Source: Candidatus Saccharimonadota bacterium
Lineage (GTDB): Bacteria; Patescibacteriota; Saccharimonadia; Saccharimonadales; AWTP1-31
Direction of reading: 5' to 3'
DNA length: 64,000 nt
NCBI GenBank assembly: GCA_052034955.1
Contig: JBPOHZ010000002.1
Span: 10,790-74,789, forward strand
The translations under genes were made by a program, and so were the position numbers. Below, one piece after another: positions 2,106 to 5,797 of this stretch (positions are counted from its first letter, which is position 1; each line of letters opens with the position of its first letter). The notes beneath the pieces were generated by a model, which saw only the letters and a list, made by a program, of their open reading frames with translations, was not told the DNA's origin and did not search any database.

Positions 2106-2534
2106 CTAACGGTTGCGTTTTCGTCGACGTAAACCAGCAACCTGTAGACGTACGGCCTGTCTATCAACCAAGGCCTGTGCCTGGTCTAGCGAAACTCTGT
2201 CTTTAGCCTGACGGGCCATAGATAATGCTTCTAGGTGCGCCTTTTCTGCCTCGGCCTCATTTATCTCATCTTCTTGATCAGCTTCGTCGACCAACAACTT
2301 AACTGTGTTATTGTTAATCTCAATAACTCCTCCGTTGGTAGCAAAATACTCGAGTTTTTCTTCGGGATCTCCCAACTTATGACGGATAGATATAACGCCA
2401 GGTGTAGCAATGCTTACCAGTGGCATATGGCTCGGAAAGACAGCAATGTAACCATCTGCTGTCGGCAGAACAACTTCATACACTTCTTTACTAAACTTAG
2501 TGCCAGCGAGAGTTACCAGCTCGAATTTTATCAT
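2106..2534 (-). CDS. atpC: F1 ATP synthase epsilon subunit
   Basis: The N-terminal region (LPTADGYIAVFPSHMPLVS) plus a helical C-terminus match epsilon. It is the last gene of the atp operon. Confidence 0.9.
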   Translation of the reverse strand: MIKFELVTLAGTKFSKEVYEVVLPTADGYIAVFPSHMPLVSIATPGVISIRHKLGDPEEKLEYFATNGGVIEINNNTVKLLVDEADQEDEINEAEAEKAHLEALSMARQAKDRVSLDQAQALVDRQAVRLQVAGLRRRKRNR

Positions 2535-2767
2535 TCCATAACTCCTATTACTCCTAATGGATCGCTTGGTAAAGTTCGTGGGACGCTACAAGCCTTAATA
2601 ATCTCATCCATCATACGAGGTGACATAAAAATCTCACCGGACTCATCATAGATCACATCAGGTCCAGCATGAGCATCTGGCAGAACAGTAACACCAACTA
2701 GTCCATCAGCATTGCAACGTGGAGTATCGACTACTGGTAACTTTCCAAGCTCAAACTTTTTTGTCAT
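2531..2767 (-). CDS. Hypothetical 78-aa protein (X3) inserted between atpD and atpC
   Basis: Its ATG lies 1 nt after the atpD stop. Its TGA overlaps the atpC ATG (ATGA). I recognise no motif. Confidence 0.6.
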   Translation of the reverse strand: MTKKFELGKLPVVDTPRCNADGLVGVTVLPDAHAGPDVIYDESGEIFMSPRMMDEIIKACSVPRTLPSDPLGVIGVME

Positions 2768-2768
2768 A

Positions 2769-4148
2769 TTATTTTACCTCGCTAATTTTGCCCTTCATAT
2801 AGAAGGCGGACTCGCTCTTATCGTCGTGTTTACCATCTAGAATTTCGCGAACTCCCTCAACGGTATCTTTAAGCGAAACATATGTTCCTGGAATACCGCT
2901 AAAAACTTCGGCCACGTGGAAGGGTTGAGTTAGGAAACGTTGCAAACGACGAGCTCGGTTAACGGTTTGCTTGTCTTCTTCGCTAAGTTCTTCCATGCCT
3001 AAGATCGCAATAATATCTTGCAAGTCTTTATAACGCTGTAATATTTTTTGTGTATCACGAGCAGTCTGGTAGTGAAGCTCACCAACAATTTCTGGGTCCA
3101 AAATTGTTGAGCCTGAATCTAGTGGATCAACAGCTGGGTATAGCCCAAGCTCGGTTAAGGCACGGTTTAGGGTAATCGTGGAGTCCAGGTGAGCAAAGGC
3201 TGTTGCTGGGGCAGGGTCGGTAAGGTCATCGGCTGGTACGTAGACAGCCTGGACGGATGTAATCGATCCAGTCTTAGTAGATGTAATACGTTCCTGCAAG
3301 CTACCCATTTCCTGTGCCAAGTTCGGTTGGTAACCAACTGCAGATGGAAGTCGGCCGAGCAGGGCAGATACTTCGGCACCAGCCTGGGTAAATCGGAAGA
3401 TGTTGTCGACAAACAACAGCACATCTTTTCCTTCGTCACGGAAGCCTTCGGCGATAGTTAGTCCACTAAGTCCAACACGCAAACGAGCACCTGGGGGTTC
3501 GTTCATCTGTCCAAATACTAGGGAAGTCTTGTCTAGAACTCCAGACTCTTCCATTTCGTAGTAAAGGTCGTTTCCTTCACGGGTACGCTCACCAACACCT
3601 GCAAAAACAGATGTTCCACCATGCTCTTTAGCAATGTTGTTAATTAGCTCAGTAATAAGAACTGTCTTACCGACACCAGCACCACCAAACAATCCAACTT
3701 TTCCACCCTTTGTAACAGGACAGATTAGGTCGATGACTTTGATTCCAGTTTCTAGAACTTCGGTTGTTCCAGATTGCTCGCTTAGGCTAGGAGGGGCACG
3801 GTGAATAGACGCCCGTTTGGTAAATTTGTCGGCCTTACCGTCGATAGGCTGGCCAAGAACGTTGAACATTCGGCCCATGGTTTCTTTGCCGATTGGTACG
3901 CTGATTGGAGCGCCAGTATCGGTAACTGTTGCACCACGCTGCAATCCGTCAGTAGATCCCAAAGAAATAGTTCTAACACTACTTTCGCCAAGGTGTTGAG
4001 CCACCTCGAAAACTAATGTCTTGCCGTTAGCAGTAGTCTCGATTGCATTATAAATTGCTGGTAAATGACCCTCGTCAAATTCCATATCAACTACCACACC
4101 AACAATTTGGCTGATAGTTCCTTGTTTTGTTTTAGTTGCTGTTGCCAT
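2769..4148 (-). CDS. atpD: F1 ATP synthase beta subunit
   Basis: Walker A GGAGVGKT and the DELSEED-like region (MEELSEEDK). Full length at 459 aa. Confidence 0.98.
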
Positions 4149-4165
4149 AATTCTCCTTAATTTTC

Positions 4166-4672
4166 CTACGCGTCATGTTCACTATTAAATGTAGCTTCAT
4201 CAATATTATTACCCTTAACGAAACCAAACTTTGCAAAAAATGTTGCCCGCCGTTGGCTGCGTTGCAACCTTTCTTTAGCAAGATATTGCTTGATAGTCTC
4301 TCTCGAGGTACCCGATATCGACATCTCTGACCTTACATTCCATAAACAGAAAGGATTTAAGTCATTAATAAACTGCCGGGCCGGTTCAAGCACATAACGA
4401 TTAAAGCTGCCAGGTACCTGATCTGCCCAGGCATCTCTTTCGTACAATAATTCACCGTCCAGGTCGGCATACGGGTCATCACGGAATTCATCTAATTTTG
4501 CCTGAAAGCTTGGGTATGGTGGGCCAAAGCGCAGGGCAGCCTCCATATCAAGTCTTTGCATTATTAAACCTCGCCTATCTTCACTAGAAAGATCTGATTC
4601 CTGTGGTGCCACTTCCAAACCCGTAGCAATTGTAAACTGCTCTGGACTTATACCATTTCTAAAGTCTGTCAT
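4166..4672 (-). CDS. Hypothetical 168-aa acidic protein (X2) inserted between atpG and atpD
   Basis: Its ATG overlaps the atpG TGA (ATGA). Its stop is followed by a 17-nt spacer containing AAGGAG, then the atpD ATG. I recognise no motif. Confidence 0.65.
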
Positions 4673-5535
4673 CTTATTGCCTCCGCTCCACCGGTTATTT
4701 CTGCTAATTCTTGGGTAATTGCTGCCTGACGGGCAGTGTTGAATGCTAGAGTTAGATCTTCGATCAGGTCACTGGCGTTGTCGGTAGCATTCTTCATAGC
4801 CATCATGCGCATAGATTGCTCACTAGCACTAGATTCTAATAGTGCTTGGCTAAGCTGAGATTCAATCAGTCTTTCAGTCACAGCCTCCAACACCGCTTTA
4901 GGTGAAGGTTCAAAAACAACACTTTCGGTATCAACTTCTATTTCTTCCTCGCTGTAAGCAGCCGGTAATAGTCGGTCGACAACGACCACCTGAGATATGC
5001 TCGATTTGTAATCGGTATACAGCAGATCAACGGCATCAACTGCTTGATTAGTGTAGGCTGTTATAACTGTATCTAGAATCGGGCGGATATCGTTAGCTGT
5101 TAAATTGTCCGGCAAATCGTGGTAAGCAGCCAAAACCTCAACGTCTTCGAAACGACTAATAAATCTGGCGCCTTGCTTACCAACAACAATTGCCTGACTA
5201 GCAATACCAGCCAGCTGATCTTTCTTAAGCTCTTTTGTGAGTCGTTTTAGAACATTACTGTTATATGCACCGGCCAATCCACGGTTACTGGTCACAACTA
5301 CAAAAAGACGAGTTTTTATATCACGACTCTGGTACAACGGATGTTTACTAACATCCGTTAGCTGACGTAGCTGAGTAAGAATCTTGCGGGCCAAGTTACG
5401 GTAGTCACGACTCCTCATTGCATGCTCCTGTGCACGACGCATTTTGCTAGCACTCACCAGCTCCATAGCCTTGGTGATTTGTTTAGTGCTTTTAACACTT
5501 GTGATGCGTTGCTTTAGCTGCTGTCGACTAGCCAC
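4669..5535 (-). CDS. atpG: F1 ATP synthase gamma subunit (GTG start)
   Basis: KQITKAMELVSASKMRRAQ at the N-terminus and ITQELAEITGGAEA at the C-terminus. Full length at 288 aa. Confidence 0.95.
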   Translation of the reverse strand: MASRQQLKQRITSVKSTKQITKAMELVSASKMRRAQEHAMRSRDYRNLARKILTQLRQLTDVSKHPLYQSRDIKTRLFVVVTSNRGLAGAYNSNVLKRLTKELKKDQLAGIASQAIVVGKQGARFISRFEDVEVLAAYHDLPDNLTANDIRPILDTVITAYTNQAVDAVDLLYTDYKSSISQVVVVDRLLPAAYSEEEIEVDTESVVFEPSPKAVLEAVTERLIESQLSQALLESSASEQSMRMMAMKNATDNASDLIEDLTLAFNTARQAAITQELAEITGGAEAIR

Positions 5536-5797
5536 GTGCTACTCCATCTTCTGCCATAGCTTTTTGAGCGACTGCTTGAAAGAGAGTTTCCATTGCTTGT
5601 GTGGCTTCTGGCGTTGGTGTACCGTCCTTAGCTTCAGTACCAATAACTAACAAAACTTCTGCGCCAACACCCATTGCACGAGCAAGTCTTGCTCGCTCAC
5701 TCTGGACACCGTTAACAAATGCTGTGTCCGCACGTCTTTCTGCACTCGTCCGTAATGCGTCCATTGCAAGTAATTCTCTGGATGCCATGGTGCTCAT
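5528..5797 (-). CDS. Hypothetical 89-aa Ala/Arg/Glu-rich protein (X1) inserted between atpA and atpG
   Basis: Its ATG lies 2 nt after the atpA TAA, with an AAGGA element upstream. Its TAG lies 8 nt inside atpG. Confidence 0.6.
   Translation of the reverse strand: MSTMASRELLAMDALRTSAERRADTAFVNGVQSERARLARAMGVGAEVLLVIGTEAKDGTPTPEATQAMETLFQAVAQKAMAEDGVARG

Follow-up and report, generated by a model that had tools for sequence, protein, structure and literature searches.

The 64,000-nucleotide (nt) window analyzed here, a stretch of contig JBPOHZ010000002.1 from a Candidatus Saccharimonadota bacterium (assembly GCA_052034955.1), contains an ATP synthase (atp) operon in which three open reading frames (ORFs), termed X1, X2 and X3, fill the junctions between the genes for the F1 subunits alpha, gamma, beta and epsilon. 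These ORFs are probably lineage-specific orphan passenger genes, or cassettes, that occupy three recurrent insertion hot spots among the F1 genes of a large Saccharimonadales clade. This reading draws on the recurrence of filled junctions in related operons, the geometry by which the fillers are coupled to their neighbors, their orphan status and turnover, the purifying selection that acts on the cassettes of relatives, and the younger age of those cassettes compared with the genes that flank them.

The operon lies on the minus strand (9544-2106) in the order a-c-b-delta-alpha-gamma-beta-epsilon. Lengths below are in amino acids (aa), and pI is the isoelectric point.

7341-9544, minus: atpB-atpE-atpF-atpH (subunits a, c, b and delta), with compact junctions of 64, 21, 1 and 11 nt
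5800-7329, minus: atpA (F1 alpha), 509 aa; an AAGGA Shine-Dalgarno-like sequence at the 3' end of the gene is used by X1
5528-5797, minus: X1, orphan cassette ORF in the alpha-gamma junction, 89 aa, pI 5.05
4669-5535, minus: atpG (F1 gamma), 288 aa, GTG start; Pfam ATP-synt, 4.4e-88
4166-4672, minus: X2, orphan cassette ORF in the gamma-beta junction, 168 aa, pI 4.75
2769-4148, minus: atpD (F1 beta), 459 aa; its own AAGGAG lies in the 17-nt spacer after X2
2531-2767, minus: X3, orphan cassette ORF in the beta-epsilon junction, 78 aa, pI 4.62
2106-2534, minus: atpC (F1 epsilon), 142 aa; Pfam ATP-synt_DE_N, 2.6e-18

A first-pass annotation of the sequence had described full-length F1 subunits in canonical order and coupling at every junction, and its coordinates and overlaps for X1-X3 all hold when re-read from the DNA. 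The atpA TAA (5802-5800) is followed by "aa" and then by the X1 ATG at 5797, so that X1 starts 2 nt past the atpA stop. The X1 TAG (5530-5528) falls 8 nt inside atpG, which begins with GTG at 5535 and whose codons 2-3 (GCT AGT) contain the X1 stop codon. At its other end, the atpG TGA overlaps the X2 ATG as ATGA (4672-4669), while a 17-nt spacer with AAGGAG at 4158-4153 separates the X2 TAG (4168-4166) from the atpD ATG at 4148. Only a "t" separates the atpD TAA (2771-2769) from the X3 ATG at 2767, and the stop of X3 (TGA) and the start of atpC (ATG) share an ATGA at 2534-2531. The F1 genes on either side are all full length, with Pfam matches for gamma and epsilon and with alpha and beta 90-95% identical to those of relatives (alpha 89-93% against the closest). 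The inserts themselves have the character of coding sequence, with a positive host codon usage score in their own frame only and the same ranking of GC content over the three codon positions (GC1>GC2>GC3) as the atp genes. No Rfam family or structured RNA, and no promoter or terminator above chance, was found in or around them, nor were there terminal inverted repeats or a target-site duplication around X1-X3.

That these junctions are false, having arisen from chimeric joins at conserved genes during assembly or binning, can for practical purposes be dismissed. Both operon segments, alpha-X1-gamma and X2-beta-X3-epsilon, are contiguous and reproduced at 100% identity by independent Logan assemblies of two runs; the same architecture is present in more than 100 independent metagenome-assembled genomes and metagenome contigs, and the frames and overlaps are exact. 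What gives the idea some footing is that the Logan contigs of both runs break ~33 nt upstream of the X2 start: those covering X2 (L081 and L164; SRR34217545 and SRR34217544) begin near window position ~4705, and the contig covering alpha-X1-gamma (L083) ends ~9 nt before the gamma stop. Such contig ends indicate that in each sample the de Bruijn graph branches at the 3' end of gamma, a pattern that co-occurring relatives with different gamma-beta contents might explain. An apparent 171-aa variant of X2 (P0007, in L164) was discarded, as the gene caller had read TAG as Gln and continued to the next TAA, and the DNA is identical to that of the window.

The first-pass annotation recognized no family in X1-X3, and this stands after much broader searches. 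In a word-indexed search of 5.8 billion protein clusters each of the three matches only itself, and a full HMMER search of X2 against 1.84 billion representatives returned no relative, only X2 itself and three spurious tandem-repeat proteins. Against Pfam and NCBIfam at E<=1 there was no relevant match, including to ATP-synthase families; scans of PADLOC and PHROGs, carried out within the cassette set described below, gave no match for X1-X3, and X2 matched neither PDB sequences nor viral contigs. In contrast, 16 of the 20 other window proteins have Pfam domains. Single-sequence AlphaFold2 prediction gave X1 a mean confidence (pLDDT) of 74.6 and two long helices at residues 3-42 and 63-88, for which a fold search returned no match at E<1 (best E = 1.6), while the prediction for X2 (pLDDT 41) is uninformative.

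To place the inserts in context, AtpG was used as a bait to collect 160 atp loci, half of them from species-representative genomes and half from metagenome contigs; all are from Saccharibacteria and have a gamma subunit 51-80% identical to that of the window. The first-pass annotation had stated that absence of the ORFs from close relatives would refute its interpretation of them as ATP synthase factors, and X1-X3 are encoded in none of the 160 loci, including genomes with 93-95% identity in alpha and beta and 78-80% in gamma. The lone trace is a weak similarity of ~40 residues between X2 (residues 50-86) and L124_GB_2 (40% identity, 36 bits), a 69-aa ORF that likewise lies in a gamma-beta junction. 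In the closest relatives the same junctions are either empty or filled with unrelated ORFs.

What recurs is the site. The loci in which a junction is expanded by at least 120 nt are distributed as follows.

a-c junction: 2/67 loci
c-b junction: 8/65 loci
b-delta junction: 2/62 loci
delta-alpha junction: 2/66 loci
alpha-gamma junction: 57/154 loci
gamma-beta junction: 83/134 loci
beta-epsilon junction: 57/116 loci

Where gamma is at least 57% identical to that of the window, at least one junction is filled in 78 of 88 loci and all three are filled, as in the window, in 21 of 61; at greater distance, compact loci predominate. The hot spots are not strictly confined to F1, as is evident from the expanded c-b junctions and from one locus, L032, in which nearly every atp junction is expanded (c-b by 312 nt, b-delta 267, delta-alpha 213, alpha-gamma 711, gamma-beta 483 and beta-epsilon 776). 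Ordinary genes can also enter: in L015 the beta-epsilon junction (8306-12094) holds a 3.8-kilobase (kb) insertion in which one gene, for a Crp-family regulator, lies on the operon strand and three lie on the opposite strand, encoding a response regulator, a PAS histidine kinase and an unknown protein of 319 aa; as a result atpC is split from the operon.

The fillers are one to three same-strand ORFs coupled end to end, the longer gaps being made up of two or three abutting ORFs. Of the 119 single-cassette gaps measuring 150-420 nt, 92% have an operon strand that is at least 90% free of stops; the opposite strand reaches this level in 10% and shuffled sequence in 4.7%. Together with the own-frame codon usage of X1-X3, this bears out the first-pass view that such ORFs are unlikely to have arisen by chance. 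Each junction has a characteristic geometry, and the window matches it. Cassettes in the alpha-gamma junction end 8 nt inside gamma (-8) in 31 of 57 cases, those in the gamma-beta junction start within the gamma ATGA (-4) in 43 of 79, and those in the beta-epsilon junction start at TAATG (-1) in 30 of 56 and end in the epsilon ATGA (-4) in 23 of 56. Part of this punctuation is contributed by the flanking genes. The atpG start of relatives reads ATGGCTAGT, a context that is conserved at filled and empty sites alike, and the -8 overlap is due to a TAG made by gamma codons 2-3 (ATG GCT AGT), which is also present in empty sites. In the same way the ...A-TGA ending of gamma is a ready-made start codon. 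A Shine-Dalgarno sequence at the 3' end of each of alpha, gamma and beta serves the next ORF, and the last codons of each cassette contain a new one.

The content of these sites is extremely diverse. Clustering of junction ORFs of at least 55 aa by BLAST placed 240 unique ORFs in 188 clusters, of which 154 are singletons, and iterated profile searches on the first locus set changed the clustering little. A Pfam domain is lacking in 130 of the 135 cassette ORFs scanned; PDB profile searches of two cassette families found no match, and the cassette set has no PHROG match apart from Avd. What unites the cassettes is composition: their median pI is 4.63, and 71% have a pI below 5, which is true of only 8% of conserved ORFs in the loci and of 16% of the proteins encoded in the window. 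Among the five Pfam-positive ORFs, one is the Crp regulator within the L015 insertion and the other four (E = 4e-37) belong to PF05635, a four-helix bundle family of 23S ribosomal RNA (rRNA) intervening-sequence and Avd-like proteins; a fifth member of this group was joined by BLASTP clustering. Those in L009, L046 and L068 lie at the beta-epsilon junction and those in L043 and L100 at alpha-gamma, and a second cassette family also spans two junctions. PF05635 is otherwise known from rRNA-gene inserts and diversity-generating retroelements. The F1 sites resemble 23S rRNA intervening sequences in that a small foreign ORF resides in a highly expressed, very conserved locus, and the cassettes of these five relatives, at two junctions, are actual members of the family. 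Intervening sequences are excised from the rRNA; the F1 insert, in contrast, stays in the mRNA and appears to be translated, and X1-X3 do not reach the Pfam profile threshold for PF05635.

Comparisons between close relatives show how these contents change. For genome pairs with 80-100% identical gamma, homologous ORFs occupy only 2 of 24 shared filled junctions, and filler contents differ even at ~90% identical gamma. L014 and L019 are colinear, with 79% DNA identity, through alpha, a 71%-identical alpha-gamma cassette and gamma; homology then ends exactly at the gamma stop, returns ~20 nt before beta, and the beta-epsilon contents are again unrelated. L084 and L002, whose sequences to either side match at 96-97% identity, are set apart by a clean 358-nt indel that corresponds to a 120-aa cassette in L084; the empty spacer of L002 reads TAA-CAAAAC-ATGGCTAG, and the indel has neither target duplication nor terminal repeats. 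Cassettes also seem to be lost. In the cassette-free L001, the 52-nt beta-epsilon spacer encodes an 18-codon in-frame mini-ORF, MAGELALLLGVTLEDVIA, with a TAATG start and an ATGA end. This mini-ORF is similar to both termini of the 88-aa L003 cassette and looks like the remnant of an in-frame deletion. The 86-nt gamma-beta spacer of L001 begins with an 11-codon ORF similar to the first part of the cassette in L002. Gradual divergence of ancestral orthologues was considered as the sole cause of this diversity and is rejected because of the sharp homology break between L014 and L019 despite their 71%-identical neighboring cassette, the clean indel between ~96% identical strains, and the finding that cassettes are younger than their flanks.

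This last finding comes from synonymous change (pS). Cassettes common to L002/L084 and L132/L133 have a pS of 0.03-0.06, which is 3-7 times lower than that of the flanking atp genes in the same two pairs (0.19-0.23), and the identity of L084 and L002 is mosaic, at 99-100% over most of the gamma-beta cassette and 92% in gamma. The lower cassette pS and the mosaic identity indicate that the cassettes are younger than the flanks, as is expected under exchange by recombination, which we infer to be the vehicle; no identical cassette was found in a distant genomic background. At the same time the cassettes of relatives are under purifying selection. The pooled ratio of nonsynonymous to synonymous change (pN/pS) for close, unsaturated pairs is 0.32 (from ~30 changes of each kind; p = 7e-6 in a Fisher test against neutrality), compared with 0.017 for the flanking atp genes; the older pair of alpha-gamma cassettes in L014 and L019 has a pN of 0.16 and a pS of 0.67, and motifs are conserved within cassette families.

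These values bear on the possibility that the inserts are translated spacers with no function as proteins, selected for frame continuity and harmlessness and perhaps tuning the ratios in which alpha, gamma, beta and epsilon are translated. This is rather unlikely. A pN/pS of 0.32 in recent pairs and ~0.1-0.25 in older ones is too low for stop avoidance alone, and neither conserved family motifs nor host-like codon usage would be expected of mere filler. Moreover, random DNA is open in only ~5% of cases, which leaves the source of so many long open sequences to be explained, and in-frame pieces of ordinary genes would have database relatives, which these ORFs do not. Several observations do suit a spacer: start and stop codons that are partly donated by the flanking genes, extreme diversity and orphan status, the 18-codon in-frame remnant of L001 with both overlaps intact, the lack of a confident fold for X2, and an acidic, soluble composition appropriate to a harmless filler.

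The first-pass annotation had favored ATP-synthase factors, and X1-X3 could in principle be accessory proteins (chaperones, hydrolysis inhibitors like IF1, zeta or AtpTheta, or extra F1 subunits) that are co-translated with F1 to meet their partners. Their exclusive placement between F1 genes, with cassettes rare at Fo/stator junctions, fits this suggestion, as do the tight coupling to F1 and the fact that, within the limited flanks searched, no cassette family was seen elsewhere than in atp operons. The predicted helical hairpin of X1 can be added, since a shape of this kind is common to several small F1 inhibitors. Yet an accessory role is unlikely, given that alpha and beta are 90-95% identical in relatives whose inserts are unrelated, absent or different in number, that presence or absence differs between ~96% identical strains, that one family can occupy different junctions, that PF05635 cassettes have no link to ATP synthase, and that no ATP-synthase family in Pfam or NCBIfam and no structure matches. 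The same holds when X1-X3 are set against the known regulators AtpI, AtpZ, the epsilon C-terminal domain, zeta, IF1 and AtpTheta. Like these, they are small and atp-encoded, and X1 is predicted to be helical, but they have no sequence or profile match to them and no conservation, while known regulators are conserved within lineages. An assembly factor, regulator, inhibitor or extra subunit is therefore not what the relatives point to, with X1-X3 absent from all 160 loci and the junctions of close relatives empty or holding unrelated fillers.

Selfish intergenic inserts, which the first-pass annotation had offered as its alternative, come closer to the data, but the inserts have no mobility gene, terminal repeats or target duplication, and relatives' cassettes, where measurable, are under purifying selection, with a pN/pS of 0.32 instead of ~1. 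It is very improbable that free-standing homing endonucleases, miniature transposons or integron-type cassettes inhabit these junctions. The reuse of three sites, the recurrence of families at different junctions and the clean pair of filled and empty sites would all be expected of such elements, and several junctions hold integron-like arrays of small, promoter-less ORFs in the same orientation. However, beyond the 130 of 135 cassettes that have no Pfam domain at all, none of the 135 has a transposase, integrase or nuclease domain in Pfam, and a GIY-YIG, HNH, LAGLIDADG or similar nuclease domain is likewise missing from X1-X3. Neither the L084/L002 indel nor X1-X3 have target duplications or inverted repeats, structured RNA was not found, and the abutting or overlapping ORFs leave no room for an attC-like site.

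Two known systems invite comparison. Integron arrays share with the F1 cassettes small, promoter-less, diverse and often orphan ORFs in one orientation that are expressed from an upstream signal, with one to three ORFs per F1 site and a modular composition between genomes. They differ in that attC and inverted repeats are absent at F1 cassettes, the spacer is nil, and expression is by translational coupling within an operon and not from a Pc promoter; no integrase was present in the window gene list or seen in the loci, the flanks of which were not systematically scanned. Phage morons and hyperplastic regions likewise place small orphan ORFs with fast turnover between the conserved genes of a colinear module. 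Morons usually bring their own promoter and terminator, while the F1 cassettes are on a cellular chromosome and have no PHROG match apart from Avd.

If the inserts are passenger genes, as we favor, termination-reinitiation is the mechanism that we infer for their expression, including the translation of X1-X3 themselves. A cassette, having neither promoter nor terminator of its own, would ride on F1 expression. Ribosomes finishing the upstream F1 gene would translate it by means of the Shine-Dalgarno sequence at that gene's 3' end, with the cassette start codon overlapping or abutting the upstream stop, and the cassette would in turn pass ribosomes on through a Shine-Dalgarno sequence in its last codons and an overlapping stop and start. 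The flanks donate part of the punctuation, with gamma ...A-TGA yielding the ATGA start and gamma GCT AGT the TAG stop. A stop or frameshift within the cassette would then be expected to uncouple the strongly conserved downstream F1 gene, and this cost would keep the frame open and restrict losses to in-frame deletions. Lineages would swap cassettes by homologous recombination in the highly conserved flanking F1 genes, a route that is available given natural competence. Saccharibacteria are naturally competent, and DNA integrates by recombination with ~1-kb homology arms (PMC10633639); alpha, gamma and beta are long enough to supply such arms. The very conserved alpha and beta genes would be the best recombination anchors, which may account for the preference for F1.

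Among known concepts, the nearest is that of the minimal mobile element, a hot spot of diversity bounded by conserved genes. Examples of this kind are those of Neisseria, the hypervariable regions of SAR11, and the hot spots of phages and plasmids. A minimal mobile element is a fixed site between conserved genes that has variable content and is exchanged via recombination in the flanks (PMC3787668). The atp loci resemble it in holding unrelated genes at a fixed site in close relatives of a naturally transformable organism (PMC10633639), in having no self-mobilizing functions (in the 135 cassettes and in the flanks of the indel and of X1-X3), and in their mosaic identity and younger cassettes. 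They depart from it in position, the sites being three consecutive junctions of a housekeeping operon; in structure, the cargo lacking a promoter and terminator and being joined to both neighbors by stop/start overlaps; and in content, this cargo consisting almost entirely of orphan, small acidic proteins as opposed to recognizable restriction, defense or metabolic genes. No description of the F1-junction cassette phenomenon was found in the searchable literature.

The products are small, acidic, mostly soluble proteins, and are most likely dispensable accessory proteins unrelated to ATP synthase; the PF05635 cassettes at two junctions suggest that the cargo is unrelated to the enzyme. Their size, acidity, diversity and turnover permit the conjecture, based on these properties only, that they are binding or immunity-type proteins under frequency-dependent selection. 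A more ambitious proposal can be put forward tentatively, and we hold it to be possible without regarding it as probable: the F1 junctions may constitute an undescribed platform for plug-in ORFs that have no promoter, draw their punctuation and Shine-Dalgarno sequences from a highly expressed, conserved operon, are entrenched by coupling and spread via the flanks, with more than 150 unrelated small acidic families in 160 loci maintained by frequency-dependent selection. Possible roles for such proteins include immunity, anti-defense and factors that act on the host bacterium.

Several points weigh against the passenger-gene reading. No relative carrying X1-X3 has been found, the best gamma identity being 80% in genomes and 79% in metagenomes, so the case for purifying selection and translation is built on other cassettes and not on X1-X3, and the pooled cassette pN/pS comes from some thirty changes of each class. 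Only atp junctions were compared, the loci containing too few conserved non-atp gene pairs for an informative control, and the restriction to F1 could reflect a cause specific to ATP synthase. Cassette families were not found outside atp operons in flanks of +/-4-6 kb, a scan of metagenomes for the best conserved family and one viral scan. Finally, one cultivated Saccharibacterium can dispense with ATP synthase (PMC10633639). This makes it less compelling that frames stay open through polarity on an indispensable gene, although the pN/pS of the atp genes here does show very strong constraint.

If the passenger-gene reading is true, a core bioenergetic operon also serves a major group of ultrasmall, episymbiotic bacteria as a platform for expressing rapidly swapped orphan genes, an unexpected home for the flexible genome in organisms with genomes below 1 Mb. 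It would also be a natural example of translational coupling that both admits and entrenches foreign genes, and a warning that the position of a gene in an operon is poor evidence of shared function. In practical terms, hundreds of expressed dark-matter proteins could be collected simply by taking the sequence that separates atpA, atpG, atpD and atpC from one another.

Two further features of the operon were noted. An imperfect short direct repeat (TGYTTTAGYTGCTGT, plus strand) occurs at 4121-4142, 5503-5524 and 7374-7395, in each case a short way into the 5' end of a coding sequence (atpD, atpG and atpH, respectively), and may be due to chance or to a common N-terminal codon or initiation context. 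The delta (OSCP) subunit (7341-7763, minus) is only 140 aa long, and its match to the Pfam OSCP profile begins at position 55, so that it appears to be without most of the usual N-terminal domain; a longer start is impossible, as atpF ends 1 nt upstream, and delta in relatives is of similar length (~135 aa).

Elsewhere in the window, the following features on the plus strand were noted.

29364-30028, plus: nickel superoxide dismutase gene followed by a gene for an S24/S26-type peptidase, presumably the maturation protease of the dismutase
61687-63314, plus: umuD-like S24 peptidase gene coupled to a Y-family (ImpB/UmuC) polymerase gene
9978-10604, plus: ORF without a Pfam domain
40799-41518, plus: ORF without a Pfam domain
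51226-51636, plus: ORF without a Pfam domain
52434-53024, plus: ORF without a Pfam domain

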